Positions 3,165 through 49,879 of a stretch of 64,000 nt of DNA are shown here, one piece after another. The stretch lies in NCBI GenBank assembly GCA_964637915.1, contig CAZWXN010000001.1:4152-68151 (forward strand). Reading direction: 5' to 3'. The stretch comes from an uncultured Nitrososphaeria archaeon. Lineage in GTDB: Archaea; Thermoproteota; Nitrososphaeria_A; Caldarchaeales; Wolframiiraptoraceae. The notes under the pieces were generated by a model. It did no database searches and was not told where the DNA came from. It worked only from the letters and a program-made list of their open reading frames with translations. A program made the position numbers and the translations under genes. The number at the start of each line of letters is the position of its first letter. The first letter of the stretch is position 1.

Positions 3165-4223
3165 CTAGTATCTTATCCTCGGATCTATGTACGCGTAGAG
3201 TATGTCGACTACTAGGTTGATTAGTGAGATTATTATTGCGAAGAATACCACCGTGCCTTGGACTGTCGTATAGTCTCTGTATTCTATTCTCTCGAAGAGG
3301 AATGTCCCCATACCCGGCCAGCTGAATGTGGTTTCCGTGAGAATCGCCCCCGTCATTAGGAGGGCGAGCTGAAGTCCCATCATGGTCATTATCGGGATGA
3401 ATGCGTTCCTGAGGACGTGGATCACGAGCCTATGCTCTGGTATCCCGCGAGCCCTAGCAGCGATAACAAAATCCTGCCTCATTACCTCCTCGACACTGGT
3501 CCTAGCAACTCTGCTAAAGACCCCAGAAATGACAAGCCCTAGGGTTAGAGATGGAAGGATTATATGCCTCAGGGCACTCACAAAGCTATCCCACCTCCCG
3601 GTAAGAATGCTGTCTAAGAGGTAGAGCCCTGTGATCATGGGGGGCTCAAGCCCCGGATCTATTCTTCCTCCAACCGGGAGAACTTTAAGCCAAACTGCGA
3701 ATAGTAGCTGGAACATCATGCCTATCCAAGGTATAAAGAGCGCATATGTGATCGCGCTATAGATCTTGACCGCGGAGTTTGTCTTTCCACCCTTCCAGCC
3801 CCCTAGAGTGCCCAATGCCACCCCGAGGATTATGCTGACCAAGAAGCCCGCTATCGCGAGCTCTATTGTTGCTGGAAGATGTTCCATTATTTCGACCAAG
3901 ACAGGTCTTTTACCCCAGATCAAAGATCTACCGAAATCGCCTCTAAAGAGATTTGCAAGATAATTGAGGTACTGTATTGGTAGGGGTATCGCATTTCCAG
4001 ACTCATCAATAAGACCCAAGGCTTTTCTAAGCTCCAGTACTCTCTCCGGAGGAGCCTTCATCCCAACAATCGCAATGACGGGATCACCGGGCATCACGCG
4101 CATGATGAAGAAGACTAAAGAGACCAATAGCAGTATCGTCGGTATCACCAGCAAAAGCCTAGCAATTACAAAGACCTTAAGCGACGTCACCTCAGCATCA
4201 CACCACCTTATGTCCTTATGCAA
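3165..4223 (-). CDS. Peptide ABC transporter permease (OppB/DppB-like)
   Basis: Multi-TM permease, conserved permease loop (VIAARARGIPE), adjacent to OppC. Confidence 0.8.
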   Translation of the reverse strand: MHKDIRWCDAEVTSLKVFVIARLLLVIPTILLLVSLVFFIMRVMPGDPVIAIVGMKAPPERVLELRKALGLIDESGNAIPLPIQYLNYLANLFRGDFGRSLIWGKRPVLVEIMEHLPATIELAIAGFLVSIILGVALGTLGGWKGGKTNSAVKIYSAITYALFIPWIGMMFQLLFAVWLKVLPVGGRIDPGLEPPMITGLYLLDSILTGRWDSFVSALRHIILPSLTLGLVISGVFSRVARTSVEEVMRQDFVIAARARGIPEHRLVIHVLRNAFIPIMTMMGLQLALLMTGAILTETTFSWPGMGTFLFERIEYRDYTTVQGTVVFFAIIISLINLVVDILYAYIDPRIRY

Positions 4224-15272: not shown

Positions 15273-16376
15273 TTATAGGTATCCCTCGGCCTCGGCGAGC
15301 TCAGCATTTAGCACCGCGTTTCCAGCAGCCCCCCTGATCGTATTATGGCCCAAGACGAGGAACTTTATCCCATTTCTTAGAACCGGGTCTCTCCTAATCC
15401 TGCCGACGACCACCGACATACCATTGCCAGCATACCTGTCCAGCCTCGGCTGAGGCCTATCCGGCTCACTCCTCACGATTATCGGCCTCTCCGGCGCGGT
15501 CGGCAGCCTTAGCTCCTGCGGCCTCCCCCTAAACCTCCTCATAGTCTCTGCAACCTCCTCAGGCTCAGCCGGCTTATCCAGCTCGACGAAAACCGCCTCG
15601 AGATGCCCCTCGAGAACATTAACTCTATGGCAGCTCGCGGAGATCTTGAAATCCGCGGGAATGATTCTTGAGCCCTCCAGCTTGCCTAGGATCTTCAATG
15701 CCTCCCGCTCAACCTTCTCCTCCTCATTTCTTATGTATGGTATGATGTTGTCCGTTATCGCCATAGAGGGCACCCCGGTCCAGCCTGCGCCCGAGAGAGC
15801 CTGCATCGTTGAGACTATCACGCTCCTTATGCCATACTCATCCATGAGCGGCTTCAAGGCTATTATCATGGCATTCGACGTGCAGTTTGGACTCGTGACT
15901 ATGAAAGATCTCCAGCCCCTCTTCCCCTGCTCCCTGACAAGGCTCAGGTGATCGGGATTAACCTCGCCTATCAGGATCGGTACATCCGGCTCCATCCTAT
16001 AGGCGCTTGCATCGCTTATCACGGGGATCCCCTCCCTCGCGAACTCGGCCTCAACCTCTCTAGCCACCTCCGATGGAAGCGCTGAGAATACTAGATCCAC
16101 ATTCCCCTCATGCTTAACATCCTCGAGCCGCGCCTCAACAACACGCATCCCCGCCGCCCGCTCCGGAACCTCGCCCTCAATACACCAGTGAACAACCTCA
16201 GCATACCTCTTCCCCGCGGATCTCGATGAAGCGGCTAAAACCTCAAGATCAAACCTCGGATGATCGGAAAGCAGCTTGACAAATCTCTGACCAACCATCC
16301 CCGTAGCACCGAGCACAGCAACCCTCAGCTTATCCATACGCACTCCACCCCAACCCCCATGCACCAAAACAGCCAT
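15273..16376 (-). CDS. asd: Aspartate-semialdehyde dehydrogenase
   Basis: VAVLGATGMVGQ NAD(P) site, catalytic SNCTSN region, C-terminal GAAG; first gene of a threonine/aspartate-family cluster. Confidence 0.85.
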   Translation of the reverse strand: MAVLVHGGWGGVRMDKLRVAVLGATGMVGQRFVKLLSDHPRFDLEVLAASSRSAGKRYAEVVHWCIEGEVPERAAGMRVVEARLEDVKHEGNVDLVFSALPSEVAREVEAEFAREGIPVISDASAYRMEPDVPILIGEVNPDHLSLVREQGKRGWRSFIVTSPNCTSNAMIIALKPLMDEYGIRSVIVSTMQALSGAGWTGVPSMAITDNIIPYIRNEEEKVEREALKILGKLEGSRIIPADFKISASCHRVNVLEGHLEAVFVELDKPAEPEEVAETMRRFRGRPQELRLPTAPERPIIVRSEPDRPQPRLDRYAGNGMSVVVGRIRRDPVLRNGIKFLVLGHNTIRGAAGNAVLNAELAEAEGYL

Positions 16377-16385
16377 GAATTAAAA

Positions 16386-18097
16386 CTTTTGACCACTTGT
16401 AAAGTCTCTCTGAAAAATGCTCAAAGATGTTCAATCATCCTATGCCTATCCTCAATCTCCATCATCCCGGCTAACGCGCAGGAAGAGAGGTTCGAGTGGG
16501 GTAGCCAGATGCCCATGACAGGCCCTCAGAAGACTCTGGCTCTCATGGTTGAGTTCTCTGACGTGATGTTTAGCATTTCTCGAAGGGCTGAGCAGGTCAT
16601 GAGAATGCTCGGCGACTTCATTGAGAGAAGCTCATATGGGAAGGCTTGGCTCGATTATTACATCTACCCGAAGGTGATAACTCTGCCCAAGCCCATGAGC
16701 TACTATGGGGCGCCAGAGCCCGAGAGCCAGAGAGGAGATGGCAGGGGGTCGTACGAGTACCTGCTAGCAATTATCGAGTTCGTCAAGAGAAAGTCGGGGC
16801 TTAACATAACGGAGTTTAAGCATATAGTCATAATTCATGCGGGGAGCGATGAGGCAATCAGCAACTCCCCCAACGACCTATGAAGCCTTTGCGCCTGTGG
16901 TATCAACAAGCTCCTTTACTTCTTAATAGAAAGGTATGGATTCGACGAGGTTGAGGGCTACCTGCTTGAGAATGTCTATGACCATATAGTTAACCTATTC
17001 ATGCATAGGAGGAAGGATGGGACAGGTCATCTGCTCAATGGCATACTAACAGTCGCGGAAGATGACATACCCTCTGTAATGATATATGAATTCACTCATA
17101 GCCTGTGGATCAGCGACCTATACGTATATGCCGAGGATGGCTATAGTACTGGATCCGAGGTCGGTGTCTGGTCGAACATGGATTACGGCCCCCTTCCTAG
17201 AGCCGCCAGTACACATAGATGGCTGGTCAAAGTACCTGCTCGGCTGGATTGAGACCACGGAAGTGAGGGGATGACGGGTACACGATCCATACACTGGATA
17301 AGGCGGAGGAGCCTCATGCGCTGATAATCCCGATAAACGACGAGGAGTACTACTTCATGCACGCTATGAGGCCCATGGGCCAAGATGCGGCGCTACCCGG
17401 CCCTAGAATCCTCGTCTTCAGAATCAACAAGTACCTGAGCAGGAATGTGGAGGGACACCCATTCATGTGTAAGATGTCAGATGCCCATCCCGATACGCCG
17501 CCGGAATGCTCATCAATGGACAAAGAGAGGATCAGGCTATGTGAAGGTCTTGACGCGCCCTATATAGATCCTGAAGGCTATAGAGGAACTTGGGGAAGAT
17601 TCGAGATAAATCTCATCAAAGGTGAGCTTGAGACCGAGGAGGGCTATTACATCAAAGTCCTAAATTTTGATAAGAAGAGGGGCGTCGCCAAGATACTCGT
17701 GAGCATTGGCGGAGCGGCTCCCGAGAAGACCACTATCGAAATGAAGACCACTGAGAAAGAGACGGCTGCTACTGATGCTACCCAGATATTGACAAAGATA
17801 ACCACTCAGACCATAACTATCACAAGCAAGGAAACGGTTACACGCGCTCAGATGAAGACCACAACGGTCGTGGAGACCGTCGTGAAGGAGGAGCTGGGCA
17901 TCTTAAGCTACGGGCTAATTGCCATAAGCATAGTGCTGGCTCTAGCGCTTGTAATAGTCACGAGCAGGAAAAGAGCCCACCGCCACCTCCGCCCCAGTCC
18001 ACCCCTCATAGTAGGAGACAATCATGAGGTCGAGCCGGGAGACATGTACACGGCTAACAGCCCTCCTTCTATCCTTCATTATCACCCTCTCGATTAG
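16386..18097 (+). pseudogene. Disrupted M6 (immune inhibitor A-like) surface metalloprotease gene with C-terminal TM anchor
   Basis: M6-like segments (LALMVEFSD, IVIIHAGSDE, MIYEFTHSLWISDLY, KYLLGWI, EEYYF) lie in three different reading frames. They are separated by an in-frame TGA at 16881-16883 and at least two frameshifts (about 17150-17270 and about 17265-17357). The HExxH motif is degenerate (YEFTH). A Thr-rich stalk plus TM anchor follows at the C-terminus. Confidence 0.5.
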
Positions 18098-40722: not shown

Positions 40723-41700
40723 TCATGCCTTTTTCATGTCCTTTATGTTTGCTAAGCAGTGTGGTGCGAATGTCTCAACATGTATTCCCTTTTCGACCAT
40801 GGCTGCTGCAGGCGTGATTCCTCCAGCCATGGAGATCCCGAACCTATCTAGCGACACGGGGATCCCTAGAACAGGCTCATTTGGCCTCCCGATCTTTAGG
40901 ATCCCGCTCCATCCCCTCCTCACCAGCTTGTCGATTATCTCGAGGGTTTTTTCCTCAGCCTCGGCAGGTATCTCCCTCATATTGGCTGGAACCATCCCTG
41001 AGCCAGTCTTTAGAACATTCAGTATAGATGTAGCCCGCTTATAAATAAATATCTCGAGGGGATGTATTGTTGTGTGCTCGTAGTCTAGGACGTCCACGAA
41101 GCGTATGGGCTTTCTCCTCAGGAATTGGACGAGGCCCCCGTATTTCAGGAATATGGGTATGCCATTTTTAATCAAGACGCCATCTATGGTTAGGTTGCAG
41201 ACTGTGAGTAGTGCAATCTTGCCCTCGGGCGCACTGACGCCCCTATACTCCTCATTCTCCTCGATTATCATGTAGTAGGGCGCGGGTAGGAGTCCACTTT
41301 CATAGAGTGAGCGAATTAGATCTATGGCCTCCTCGGCATGACTCTTATCTATGACCGTTATATTCGCCACAACGTCTCCGGAATTGTTATCGGGGGAGTA
41401 GGTCGTCTTATAGGCTAGTGACATGTATTTCGTCAGTATTGAGCCCATCCTCTCATAGGCTAGAGCTCTGGTTAGCTCTTCCAAACCCCTCTCCGTGATT
41501 CTTCTACCAATCCTCTCATGGCCCTCGACAAAACCCCTCTCCTCAAGGATCTTGAGATGATATCTAACGGTTCTTTCGCTGAGCAGGAAGCCCCGCTTAG
41601 CAAGCTCCCTCTGTATTATTGATGAGCCGATTGGCTCGACATGCTCGCTCAGGATTCTCAGAATCTCTATCTGCTTCCTATCAAGTTCTCCAGCCGACAA
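40723..41700 (-). CDS. NrpR-like nitrogen regulatory repressor (wHTH + DUF128 domain)
   Basis: N-terminal wHTH (QIEILRILSEH...SERTVRYHLKILEERGFV) similar to NrpR, single C-terminal regulatory domain; divergent from gdhA. Confidence 0.55.
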   Translation of the reverse strand: MSAGELDRKQIEILRILSEHVEPIGSSIIQRELAKRGFLLSERTVRYHLKILEERGFVEGHERIGRRITERGLEELTRALAYERMGSILTKYMSLAYKTTYSPDNNSGDVVANITVIDKSHAEEAIDLIRSLYESGLLPAPYYMIIEENEEYRGVSAPEGKIALLTVCNLTIDGVLIKNGIPIFLKYGGLVQFLRRKPIRFVDVLDYEHTTIHPLEIFIYKRATSILNVLKTGSGMVPANMREIPAEAEEKTLEIIDKLVRRGWSGILKIGRPNEPVLGIPVSLDRFGISMAGGITPAAAMVEKGIHVETFAPHCLANIKDMKKA

Positions 41701-41837
41701 GGGGCCGCTCCACCCTCTCCGAGAGATTGATAGCTGGAAGCAACGCGAGATAAGGGTTTCATGGCCTTATCACCGTTTTACAGAGCATATAGTAGCCGTG
41801 TTAGGGTCGGGTTATACGGTAATGTATTGCCTAAATT

Positions 41838-41861
41838 CTTATAAGTGACGAATTTCGAAAT
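41838..41861 (+). promoter_or_regulatory. TATA-like box plus 10-bp perfect palindrome ATTTCGAAAT upstream of gdhA
   Basis: cttataagtg (TATA-like) followed by acgaATTTCGAAATgtg about 27 bp before the gdhA ATG; the position fits an operator overlapping the transcription start. Confidence 0.3.
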
Positions 41862-41878
41862 GTGAGCCGGATTTAGAG

Positions 41879-43147
41879 GTGGAGTTTATGAGCGGATTAG
41901 ACCCATTCGAGATGGCTGTCAAGCAGCTTGAGAGGGCTGCCCGCTACATGGAGATAAGCGAGGAGGCGCTCGAGTTCCTTAAGAGGCCAATGAGGATCTT
42001 GGAGGTCTCCATCCCCGTCGAGATGGATGATGGATCTGTGAAGGTCTTCACCGGCTTTAGGGTTCAGCATAACTGGGCTCTAGGGCCTACCAAGGGCGGT
42101 ATAAGGTGGCATCCCGAGGAGACCCTCAGCACAGTCAAGGCCCTCGCGATGTGGATGACATGGAAATGCGCAACGCTCGGGCTGCCATATGGCGGGGGCA
42201 AGGGAGGAGTGGTGGTAGACCCGAAGAGGCTCAGCGACCGGGAGAAGGAGAGGCTGGCGAGAGGTTACATAAGGGCAATCTACGACGTGATAAGCCCTTA
42301 CACCGACATCCCAGCGCCAGATGTTTACACTAACCCGCAGATCATGGCATGGATGATGGACGAGTATGAGGTGATCTCTAGGAGAAGAGATCCATCATTC
42401 GGGATAATTACCGGGAAGCCTACTATCGTCGGCGGGTCCTTGGGGAGAGAGACCGCGACAGCTCAGGGCGCCATATTCACGGTGAGGGAAGCCGCGAAAG
42501 TCCTGAAGATGAGCCTTGAGGACAAGAGGGTCGCCGTTCAGGGTTATGGAAATGCGGGATACTATATGGCAAAGCTCGCTAGGGAACAGCTAAAGATGAA
42601 GGTTATAGCCGTCTCCGACTCTAAAGGTGGGATCTATAACCCGGATGGCCTCGACCCTGATAAAGTTCTCAAGTGGAAGCAGGAGCATGGCTCGGTCGTG
42701 GACTTCCCAGGCGCCACGAACATAACAAATGACGAGCTTCTGACACTCGATGTCGAGGTCCTAGCACCATCTGCGATAGAGGGAGTGATTCATAAGGGCA
42801 ACGCGGACAAGATCAGGGCCAAGATACTGGCCGAGGTCGCGAACGGCCCGGTAACGCCGGAGGCCGATGAGATACTCTTCGAGAAGGGCGTTCTCCAGAT
42901 ACCGGACTTCCTCTGCAACGCCGGTGGAGTGACCGTGAGCTACTTCGAGTGGGTCCAGAACATAACAGGCTACTACTGGAGCGAGGAGGAGGTGAGGGAG
43001 AGGCTGGACAAGAAAATGACCGAGGCATTCTGGGGAGTATACAACATCCACAAGGAGAAGAGGATACACATGAGGGACGCAGCATACGTGAGGGCCGTCA
43101 CAAGAGTGTATGAAGCGATGAAGGCACGTGGATGGGTGAAAAAATAG
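41879..43147 (+). CDS. gdhA: Glutamate dehydrogenase
   Basis: Catalytic Lys-containing GGGKGG motif, NAD(P) site GYGNAGYY, 422 aa. Confidence 0.9.
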
Positions 43148-47941: not shown

Positions 47942-48202
47942 TTAGAGGATTCCAAGCTCGACTGCGAGGTCCGCTGCCTTGTATTCTGGCTTTAGCTTGA
48001 CGTATGCCTTCTTCTCGCCTCTTGGCGTTATCATCGTATTCACCTTCTCCACCTTCACACCATAGAGCTCCTCAACCGCCCTCTTTACATCGGCCTTGGT
48101 CGCTCTCAAGTCGACTATGAAGGTGAGCTTATTCTCCTTCTCGATTAGCGAGACCGCGTCCTGCGTGATCACAATCCTCTTGATTACTTCGGAGGCCCTC
48201 AT
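47942..48202 (-). CDS. Ribosomal protein uL23
   Basis: 86 aa, [31 protein letters not shown] pattern. Confidence 0.85.
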
Positions 48203-49035
48203 GCTAAACCACCCAGTATCTTTTCATCCAGCTTTTCTAGGGCGGATCTTGTCCAGATCGTAAGCCTGCCTGGCTTGGCGCCGGGCGCGAGGTGGAGGAC
48301 GCTTAGATCCTTCAGCTTCACGACCTTGACACCGGGGATGTTCTCTGCGGCCTCCTCGATCCCGCGATCCTCGAGTATAACTATCAGCGGCCCAACCCTC
48401 CGCTTATATCTCCGGCCCCTCCGCTTGCCCTTGCCAGCCCTAACCTTCTTCTCACTACATCTCTCGAGCTCCTCGCCAAGCCCTATCTTCTCCAAGAATT
48501 CTCGAACCTCCCTAGTCTTGGCGATAGACTGGAGCGCGTCATCAACGACTATTGGGAGTGGAAGGTCTTCCGGGATCCTATGCCCTCTATCCTTAACCGC
48601 CTCCCTATCTGCCGTGAATGCTATCGCCACGGCGAGCGCCGCCCTCTTCTCCTTCTCATTGAGATCCTTGTGGATCTTCTTTTCCGGCACCGGTGGGTGT
48701 CCCGGTCTACCGCCTACGGCCGAGTTAATCATCCCGCCAGCCATCGCCTTGCCAGTGCCATGAGCTCTTATCCGGGATACTCTGGCTACGCCATAGCCCG
48801 CTCCAAGCGACTCAACAGAGTACTTGTGTCCCGAGCCCTTGAACGTGCCCTTAGGCTGTAGGACATGGGTCTGGAGATGTATGAAGGCCCTCCAGACTAG
48901 GTCCTCCCTAAGCGGGGCCAAGAAGGTCTTGGGAAGCGTGATCTCGCCTACCTTGTTACCAGCTAGATCTAGGACGGGCACTCTCCTCTCGCCCGCCCTA
49001 GAAGCATTCATCAGCAGCTCAACCAGTAGGCTCAT
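48199..49035 (-). CDS. Ribosomal protein uL4 (L4/L1e)
   Basis: 278 aa; L4 fold pattern, 4-nt overlap with uL23. Confidence 0.85.
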
Positions 49036-49879
49036 TCTAGGCTTCTAGCTCATAAGAGCCCATATTTAAGGCATGACTCTCACATATCAATATATCATCA
49101 AAAAATCACATGCATTAGAAGCTGTCCAACTCTGGTAAGGGAAATCCTAAATTGGGGACTAGGGAAAAAGGGTCTCACTATCATCCTTTTTCTTTCTTCC
49201 TTCATCTCTTCTCCCATTGGGGGTCTCTGGAATCATATGTCTCCATCTTGCCCTTAGCCATGTATATTCTTCTCCTCTCCTTTAGAGTAGAGTCTATCCC
49301 GCCAGCCTTTCTGAGAGAAATTCTCCTACACGCTTCTATCCTCTCCACCCCCAATACCCTTATCCATACCGTAATTGATCTCGTATCGCTCCTCATCCTA
49401 GCTCATGCCGCCGAAGACCTTATCCTCCTCGATAAACTTCTTCTTGAACCTCTTCCATTAACCTTGATTCTGAATGCTGAAGCTAGCATCCCTATGATGA
49501 ACTAGAAGTCCCTATTTTTGGAATGATCCTCAACGAATGAAGGATGGCCCATGTCGGGGATGTGGTTGTCTGGGGTTCTAGCTAGGTGTCTGTCCTCGAG
49601 AATCTTGACGGGATAGATGATTTCGCCAAGACATTTGGAAGATGTGTTGGGAAATCAGCGATAAGGGCGTTATACAGTGAGCCCAAGGATCTGATGAGGT
49701 GATTGATAAATTCTTCCTGCAACACGTTATCTTGACGCTTGGGTAGAGGCGTGCCCTCCGACTATTATACTAAACTAAGAAGAATGCAAACGCAATGATA
49801 AGCTATGCTCTAGCGATCATTAAGTGGTTTGAAGATTCCTGGAGCTCGCTCCAGGAAGGGAGCAACGTATAGCTAGGGT

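Follow-up and report, generated by a model that had tools for sequence, protein, structure and literature searches.

In the 64,000-nt stretch of archaeal DNA analysed here (the window), a gene for a 325-amino-acid (aa) NrpR-like regulator and a glutamate dehydrogenase (GDH) gene, gdhA, are transcribed away from each other across a 187-bp intergenic region, which raises the question of whether the one controls the other and through which DNA site. NrpR has been regarded as a regulator of Euryarchaeota, namely of methanogens; it 'appears to be restricted to the euryarchaeota' according to a 2012 paper, by which nothing was then known on nitrogen regulation in Crenarchaeota (PMC3584215). In methanogens, nitrogen limitation causes 2-oxoglutarate to rise and NrpR to leave its operator (PMC11957540). 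The initial annotation of this locus suggested a 2-oxoglutarate-responsive control of gdhA of this kind, with a perfect 10-bp palindrome between the TATA box and the gdhA start codon as the operator. By the comparisons given below, the NrpRI-type regulator most likely controls the divergent gdhA (at a probability of roughly 0.55), with a dimer predicted to bind not that palindrome but the 14-bp dyad GGTAATGTATTGCC at 41818-41831.

The regulator, gdhA and their conserved linkage

The regulator gene, an open reading frame (ORF) at 40723-41700 on the minus strand, opens with a TTG start codon and encodes two Pfam domains. The winged-helix domain PF08461 (HTH_12) spans residues 11-76 (41473-41670, minus strand; E = 1.3e-22; 79.9 bits, cutoff 21.4), and is fused to one single stretch of PF01995 (NRD1_2, formerly DUF128), i.e. 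the NrpR regulatory domain (NRD) presumed to sense the effector, at residues 86-324 (40729-41445, minus strand), where model positions 2-238 of 238 were matched with E = 3.8e-80. An HTH_12 winged helix together with at least one PF01995 domain characterizes the NrpR family, and a single NRD fused to the winged helix the NrpRI subtype; judged by its domains, the 325-aa protein is thus a true NrpR-family member of the one-NRD, NrpRI-like type. The same 325-aa product was called by independent gene callers in the sister contigs L084-L088 (L001-L102 denote the related loci compared with the window). No NCBIfam model matched the regulator, and database annotations already label such proteins NrpR-like. 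A protein search yielded 650 homologues from metagenome-assembled genomes (MAGs) of Bathyarchaeia, Aigarchaeota and Thaumarchaeota, and the best 120 of the 650 were all 320-348 aa in length with the same two domains. A second PF01995 gene, as would be needed for a separate NRD-only partner (NrpRII, which contacts TBP/TFB), was not found in the 64-kb window, where tblastn with the nrpR product returned only itself, the rest of the genome lying outside this search.

The sole solved relative found by sequence was MJ0159 of Methanocaldococcus jannaschii (PDB 3NEK), the NRD of which aligned over regulator residues 81-323 (E = 2.3e-33); its 238-residue chain aligns to the NRD only and has no winged-helix counterpart, so it serves as a structural reference for that domain alone. 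Both proteins carry the CxxTxDG motif, and the cysteine of CNLTIDG in the regulator (C168), which is invariant across 26 homologues, aligned with that of CAVTLDG in MJ0159. NRD cysteines have a role in the 2-oxoglutarate response, a point that would favour such a response in the regulator. At the position of the recognition helix in the winged helix, residues S41-L49 (SERTVRYHL) were similarly constrained, with S41, R43, R46, Y47, H48 and L49 invariant in the 26 homologues, and relatives of 38-42% identity were recovered as well when S[ED]R[TA][IV]RYHL served as the search pattern. That SERT[IV]RYHL is largely invariant in the 26 closest homologues fits a conserved operator type.

On the opposite strand, gdhA (41888-43147, plus strand) encodes an archaeal glutamate dehydrogenase of 419 aa with the Pfam domains ELFV_dehydrog_N and ELFV_dehydrog, and it matched the NCBIfam equivalog model NF040817 (GdhA_Arch) over positions 1-419 of 419 with 811.3 bits (cutoff 750). 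Because of this full-length match and the Shine-Dalgarno-like GAGGTGGAG ahead of the ATG (41876-41884, plus strand; invariant in strains), the start was placed at ATG 41888 rather than at GTG 41879 of the mechanical ORF list, and 419 aa is also the length called in the sister contigs. Directly downstream of gdhA lies a gene for a 116-aa retropepsin-like aspartyl protease (PF13650/PF13975; 43201-43551, minus strand), which is kept in the sister contigs as well.

The regulator is 95-96% identical to a protein of a Candidatus (Ca.) Wolframiiraptor gerlachensis MAG, and its next relatives, at 68-76% identity, come from a Wolframiiraptor sp. MAG and an 'uncultured Nitrososphaeria archaeon' MAG. By protein identity, the organism is therefore close to Ca. 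W. gerlachensis (Caldarchaeales, in the TACK superphylum of Thaumarchaeota, Aigarchaeota, Crenarchaeota and Korarchaeota), namely a non-euryarchaeal hot-spring lineage. The formal search thus upheld the DUF128 homology and the architecture proposed by the initial annotation, i.e. an NrpR-type winged helix with a single regulatory domain; the GdhA_Arch match confirmed glutamate dehydrogenase as the divergent neighbour, and the TACK MAG homologues together with the Wolframiiraptor placement bore out that NrpR is not the textbook regulator of this lineage. Seven sequences of three strain lineages (the window, L001 and L084-L088) share the same divergent gene pair and were used for strain comparison. 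Between the window and L001, identity was 99% for the GDH protein, 95% for the regulator and about 91% for the intergenic DNA, indicating that GDH is under much stronger constraint than its neighbour; 34 of the 187 intergenic columns varied among the strains, a background of 18%.

To what extent nrpR-like genes keep company with nitrogen genes was read from about 100 loci, 83 of which came from genome and metagenome scans and 16 more from exact-protein look-up. GDH lies divergent from the nrpR-like gene in the seven strain sequences, follows it in L003, L004, L007, L094 and L096, and precedes it in L031, L032, L048 and L049. Clustering and Pfam scans of all neighbours in the 83 loci found genes of the Glu_synthase/GXGXG type beside nrpR in 20 loci, guaA in 13, B12-radical SAM (S-adenosylmethionine) genes in 11, GDH in 8, purL/S/Q in 6, and gltD-like genes and purF in 4 each. 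In the Caldarchaeales relatives the nrpR gene stands in compact nitrogen-assimilation islands, such as nrpR-glnA-GXGXG-GDH in L090, nrpR-glnA with divergent GATase_2 and Glu_synthase (gltB) genes in L092 and L093, and nrpR followed by a gene for a 529-aa Glu_synthase-domain protein in L097 and L098. The association with nitrogen-assimilation genes that marks the NrpR family was thus found for GDH, glnA, Glu_synthase/GXGXG/GATase_2, guaA, purF and purL. As the linkage between nrpR and nitrogen genes outlasts rearrangement, it indicates a functional connection, and the genomic context strongly links the regulator to nitrogen metabolism.

The gdhA promoter and a candidate NrpR operator

The putative gdhA promoter element, recognized from its sequence and from lying about 45 nt ahead of the ATG, consists of taaatt followed by CTTATAAG at 41832-41845 (plus strand) and would comprise the TFB recognition element (BRE) and the TATA box. 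Its TATA-like box cttataag (41838-41845) was invariant in all seven strain sequences, and the taaatt part varied at one position, 41832, with T in the window and G in the other strains. By comparing the promoters of genes neighbouring nrpR, we recognized immediately upstream of it the candidate NrpR operator GGTAATGTATTGCC (GGTA-N6-TGCC, 41818-41831), a dyad that abuts the BRE and ends 6 nt upstream of the TATA-like box. Among the strains one spacer base alone varies while the half-sites are invariant, and this is the only credible site with at most two mismatches in the intergenic region of the window.

The window dyad belongs to the motif class GG[CT]A-N6-T[AG]CC, and its layout, namely a dyad, then 0-7 nt, then a TATA box, recurs at gdhA, glnA and glutamate synthase (GOGAT)-like promoters of the relatives. 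In the window, GGTAATGTATTGCC is followed by taaatt and CTTATAAG; at glnA of L092, GGTAACCGATTGCC is followed by aaat and TTTATAAA; at gdh of the L007 group (L007, L094 and L089), the dyad GGCATAGCCTTTCC, directly GGCAAAAAGCTACC, precedes atcaaa and CCTTTAAT; and at gdh of L090, the dyad GGCACCTAATTTCC, directly GGCAATAAAATACC, precedes atcaaag and CTTTAAT. Three further cases are independent, as L097, L098 and L096 were fetched after the motif had been defined: the GOGAT-like genes of L097 and L098 have GGCATCCTATTACC followed by atatatttatat, and GGCAACCTTTTTCC followed by ataaa and CTTTATAAA, respectively, and gdh of L096 has GGAAAAAATTTGCC followed by gtggg and AATATTCATATTT. In Bathyarchaeia, further matches were located at GOGAT-like genes (L010, L047 and L059) and in the divergent region of guaA (L010).

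Statistical analysis supported the enrichment of the dyad. The 63 non-redundant loci supplied 24.2 kb of intergenic DNA with promoters, in which GG[CT]A-N6-T[AG]CC matched 9 times versus 0.69 ± 0.85 expected, with a maximum of 4 in 200 shuffles, and its density was five times higher in intergenic than in coding DNA (0.37 versus 0.07 per kb). It was present in 8 of 22 promoter regions that flank genes of glutamate or glutamine metabolism, versus 1 of 110 others (Fisher p = 1.4e-6), and after removal of the four loci that had suggested the motif, 4 of 18 versus 1 of 110 were retained (p = 1.3e-3). When about 16,900 dyads were enumerated (4-nt half-sites, one two-fold degenerate position, spacers of 0-10), this motif ranked first with a Bonferroni-corrected p of about 0.02, the overlapping variants GG[AC]A-N6 and G[CT]AA-N4 ranking second and third. 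Upstream regions belonging to nrpR only held no match (0 of 39), which agrees with the report that the expression of NrpR itself is not nitrogen-regulated (PMC9765008). A palindromic 14-bp site of the GGNA-N6-TNCC operator type expected for the NrpR family is thus found here at nitrogen-gene promoters, and its occupancy by the regulator appears plausible from the sequence.

The alternative site is the palindrome ATTTCGAAAT (41852-41861), at which the regulator would repress gdhA from between the TATA box and the transcription start, a reading that we regard as very improbable. Both cttataag and ATTTCGAAAT are present where the initial annotation had put them, and the position is classic for an archaeal repressor; moreover, the chance of at least one 10-bp palindrome in the 42 bp from TATA box to ATG is 0.015, as compared with 0.17 in a shuffled intergenic region of 187 bp. 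The 8-bp core TTTCGAAA is retained in the L084-L088 lineage and occurs 3 times in the window versus 0.61 expected, and TTTC-N(0-1)-GAAA and TTC-N-GAA strings recur in some Bathyarchaeia intergenic regions. However, the site reads ATTTCGAAAT in the window, GTTTCGAAAG in L084-L088 and the broken ACTTCGAGAG in L001, which has the same arrangement and a regulator of 95% identity, so that 4 of its 10 columns vary against the 18% background and only TTCGA is invariant, while the TATA-like box, the Shine-Dalgarno-like sequence and the half-sites of the dyad stay unchanged. Perfect 10-bp palindromes are at chance level in the window (79 versus 73 ± 9 in shuffles), ATTTCGAAAT occurs once there either exactly or with one mismatch (1.64 expected), and the two other copies of TTTCGAAA, one in a coding region and one upstream of a gene for a zinc-ribbon protein, are away from nitrogen genes. 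Nor did the palindrome recur at related promoters: in 38.8 kb of related intergenic DNA ATTTCGAAAT was found once and TTTCGAAA twice, without enrichment, and none of the other GDH, glnA and GOGAT promoters inspected had ATTTCGAAAT. It is also unlike the known NrpR operators, and the excess of TTC-N-GAA (16 loci versus 5.3 expected) fails correction for roughly 8,000 7-mers. Archaeal TATA boxes have their centre some 26 nt ahead of the transcription start, which would place the palindrome at roughly -16 to -6 in the AT-rich stretch melting at initiation; this position is a sufficient explanation for its composition, and ATTTCGAAAT is probably an incidental part of that stretch. The idea of an NrpR-like control of gdhA was strengthened through the linkage to nitrogen genes and the NrpR-type dyad, while the palindrome was not supported as its site.

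Other motifs were queried as well and set aside. The exact methanogen operator GGAAN6TTCC is absent from the window, where its one-mismatch forms numbered 20 versus 29.8 expected with none near gdhA or nrpR. In the 38.8 kb of related intergenic DNA, GGAA-N5/6/7-TTCC, TTCGAA, TTTCGAAA, ATTTCGAAAT and ACC-N7-GGT (attributed, apparently wrongly, to Methanosarcina mazei) were all unenriched. When dyads and k-mers were sought de novo across the whole set of intergenic regions, the only ones to emerge were TTTC-N1-GAAA, GAAAA-N7-TTTTC, ATGAC-N4-GTCAT and TTCNGAA, which are lineage-specific elements of Bathyarchaeia or fail multiple-testing correction.

Two more repeats lie on the nrpR side of the intergenic region. 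The inverted repeat GATAAGG-N9-CCTTATC (41749-41771), which stands between the nrpR start and the likely nrpR TATA box and occurs once in the window, could bind some other factor or form a hairpin in the nrpR leader, and its assignment to the nrpR promoter or 5′ leader is uncertain. Its arms are unchanged in all strains and its spacer carries an indel in L001 and a substitution in L087, yet with 2 of 23 columns variable (P = 0.17) the strain divergence is too low for significance. As an autoregulatory operator it was set aside, being unique in the window, absent from the other loci and too little diverged among strains to judge. Directly upstream of the nrpR TTG, the palindrome CTCTC-C-GAGAG (41716-41726) overlaps the minus-strand Shine-Dalgarno-like GGAGAGGGTGGAG and is invariant in all strain sequences.

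Direction of control and relation to characterized systems

In the mechanism that we propose, a regulator dimer sits on the dyad GGTAATGTATTGCC next to the gdhA BRE/TATA. At low 2-oxoglutarate it would occupy the dyad and block access of TFB and TBP to the gdhA promoter, since a dyad abutting the BRE would, when bound, hinder TFB/TBP assembly, and rising 2-oxoglutarate would release it. The operator-type match suggests that the regulator, rather than another factor, is the protein that binds; repression as the sign of control is proposed by analogy to the characterized members, and 2-oxoglutarate would be the effector by family membership.

The position of the site also allows the opposite sign, namely that the same protein on the same GGTA-N6-TGCC site activates gdhA from upstream of the BRE by recruiting TFB/TBP, so that GDH would be switched on under ample nitrogen and off as 2-oxoglutarate builds up. 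The dyad precedes the TATA box in each of the seven Caldarchaeales promoters. For archaeal regulators such as TrmBL1, SurR and Ptr2, binding ahead of the BRE/TATA commonly leads to activation, and a low-affinity GDH favoured under nitrogen excess makes physiological sense. However, the glnA promoter of L092 has the identical layout, and activation of glutamine synthetase (GS) under nitrogen excess would be odd; a dyad ending 0-7 nt from the TATA box would overlap the BRE and should occlude TFB; and all characterized NrpR proteins are repressors (PMC2723118, PMC9765008, PMC11957540). We therefore consider activation unlikely, though a serious alternative, and repression by the regulator bound at GGTAATGTATTGCC is preferred.

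Several observations weigh against this preferred reading. Some of them would suit a coincidence of adjacency and dyad, in which the regulator acts elsewhere, or another factor responding to nitrogen binds GGYA-N6-TRCC, and gdhA is expressed constitutively or under other control. The intergenic region holds one site only; the motif occurs 8 times in the whole window versus 2.9 expected, mostly inside genes; L002, the next-closest homologue (76% identity), has no nitrogen gene adjoining; and many nrpR-like loci adjoin non-nitrogen genes, e.g. those for B12-radical SAM proteins and TFB. Against such a coincidence stand the linkage of GDH in three independent arrangements, the rank of the motif as top discriminator of Glu/Gln-gene promoters beside nrpR genes, its identity with the operator type of characterized NrpR proteins, and the invariance of the half-sites among strains, and we judge it to be rather improbable. 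Of the remaining adverse points, L003 and L004, from the nearest other Wolframiiraptor species, have nrpR followed by gdh with the half-site GGCAAatgatAGGC only, and the Bathyarchaeia dyads are downstream of the TATA box, those of L047 and L059 lying 5 and 2 nt after a TATA-like sequence. Four of the loci counted are those in which the motif had initially been spotted by eye, a weakness that the enumeration and the held-out loci lessen without removing it. The motif is absent from two Caldarchaeum/Aigarchaeota glnA promoters chosen independently of nrpR, an uninformative result for genomes that may or may not carry nrpR. No other nitrogen-assimilation gene than gdhA is in the window, to which the same-genome regulon comparison was confined, and a search for glnA homologues returned no match attributable to Wolframiiraptor. 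Finally, a site immediately upstream of the BRE is an activating position in several archaeal regulators, so that repression is not certain, and the case for control through the dyad is a sequence-based one.

Two of the motif copies in the window are in space free of annotated ORFs, at 16500 and 49742, and neither is at a promoter: the former is in a probable disrupted ORF and the latter 3′ of rpl3. Around the former, two same-strand ORFs (207 aa and 83 aa; 16260-17252) fill a gap at 16377-17000 and look like a disrupted or frameshifted gene, with the GGTAGCCAGATGCC dyad inside. The latter, GGTAGAGGCGTGCC, is the one dyad in about 840 bp lacking a convincing ORF (49036-49879) between the ribosomal protein L3 gene (49880-50860, minus strand) and a minus-strand ORF (48199-49035), a gap in which neither a tRNA nor an Rfam match was found.

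Among the characterized systems, NrpRI of M. mazei, a global nitrogen repressor acting with NrpRII, has the architecture of the window regulator, i.e. a winged helix and one NRD in about 330 aa, whereas NrpR of Methanococcus maripaludis has two NRD domains and its nif operators are downstream of the TATA box. The operator proposed for M. mazei NrpRI is GGTA-N6-TACC (PMC3177094), of which GGTA-N6-TGCC in the window matches 7 of the 8 defined bases, and both regulators are linked to nitrogen-assimilation genes; the window regulator differs in its host, a Caldarchaeales member of TACK and not a methanogen, in its neighbour and likely target gdhA, and in the candidate site immediately upstream of the BRE/TATA, where binding and 2-oxoglutarate response would follow by analogy. 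M. maripaludis NrpR (MMP0607), a family member as well, represses nif and glnA until 2-oxoglutarate releases it; its operator consensus GGAAN6TTCC (PMC2723118) is a 14-bp palindrome of the same geometry as the window site (PMC2723118, PMC4902934), with the half-site GGAA there versus GG[CT]A in the motif defined here, and GGAA or TTCC half-sites are present in the related loci L096, L098 and L007 O1.

More tentatively, and with the balance of probability still against it, an NrpR-type, 2-oxoglutarate-sensing regulon might be widespread in TACK lineages, including Caldarchaeales and Bathyarchaeia, with a GGYA-N6-TRCC operator for GDH, GS, GOGAT-type genes and possibly guaA, purF and purL, and with its placement switched between lineages. 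If so, an NrpR regulon would exist in lineages where the literature states that NrpR is absent and nitrogen regulation unknown, and the switch in placement, which would put the operator ahead of the BRE in Caldarchaeales and past the TATA box in Bathyarchaeia, could mean different regulatory logic, including activation of gdhA. This extends a known system and does not amount to a new mechanism, and what is new here is the comparative, sequence-level support for a TACK NrpR regulon (GDH, GS and GOGAT) and its putative operator. Searching the literature for links between NrpR and Bathyarchaeia, Aigarchaeota or Caldarchaeales found none, one methanogen review naming NrpR and Bathyarchae being left aside. 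The Ca. W. gerlachensis enrichment culture assimilates 15N-ammonium, and GDH or its control is not discussed in that paper (PMC9246946). With an NrpRI-type protein encoded among the glutamate, glutamine and GOGAT genes of uncultured TACK archaea and a methanogen-like operator close by, a concrete and cheap prediction arises that is checkable in this enrichment, and GGYA-N6-TRCC could help to predict nitrogen regulons from MAGs of these lineages, which are abundant in sediments and hot springs.

Further elements near nrpR-like genes

In Bathyarchaeia, a conserved element of ~80 nt was observed just downstream of nrpR and upstream of guaA, which reads ...GTGTGAAC...GAAAAAA-N5-GTTTTCAACAAT-N7-TATTAGGCTCCTAATAT and holds two DNA palindromes, GAAAA-N7-TTTTC and TATTAGG-N2-CCTAATA. 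It is located at 4040-4125 in L012, 3430-3515 in L017 and 2240-2325 in L018, where a second copy follows about 100 nt on, and is present in L025, L026, L033, L036, L038, L040 and L061 as well, with a variant in L043-45; in L048 (minus strand, 3831-4091) it also adjoins the 3′ end of a tRNA-like sequence. A riboswitch was considered for this nrpR-guaA element and set aside, as neither an Rfam match nor covariation was found, and a DNA element that binds protein or is mobile seems the better reading.

A perfect 14-bp palindrome, ATGACGTATGTCAT (ATGACATACGTCAT in L018), was also seen in Bathyarchaeia, at 535-548 of L017, 2714-2727 of L021, 1382-1395 of L037, 1398-1411 of L039, 1145-1158 of L040 and 388-401 of L018. 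It comes after 'aatatttaaat' in five loci and after 'actaacaat' in L018, and in L017, L037 and L039 it is between a TFB gene and the B12-radical SAM gene that precedes nrpR. Such a position is the textbook one for a repressor operator.

In the Caldarchaeum sp. MAGs L100-L102 (3955-4571), two small AsnC_trans_reg (RAM-domain) genes come after glnA, the promoter of which is free of an NrpR-type dyad, a layout that hints at a different, Lrp/RAM-type nitrogen control in the Caldarchaeum branch. Upstream of the nrpR-like genes of L097 and L098, which are Caldarchaeales/Nitrososphaeria MAG contigs, tRNA-like sequences were observed at about 3775-3860 and about 3750-3835, respectively.

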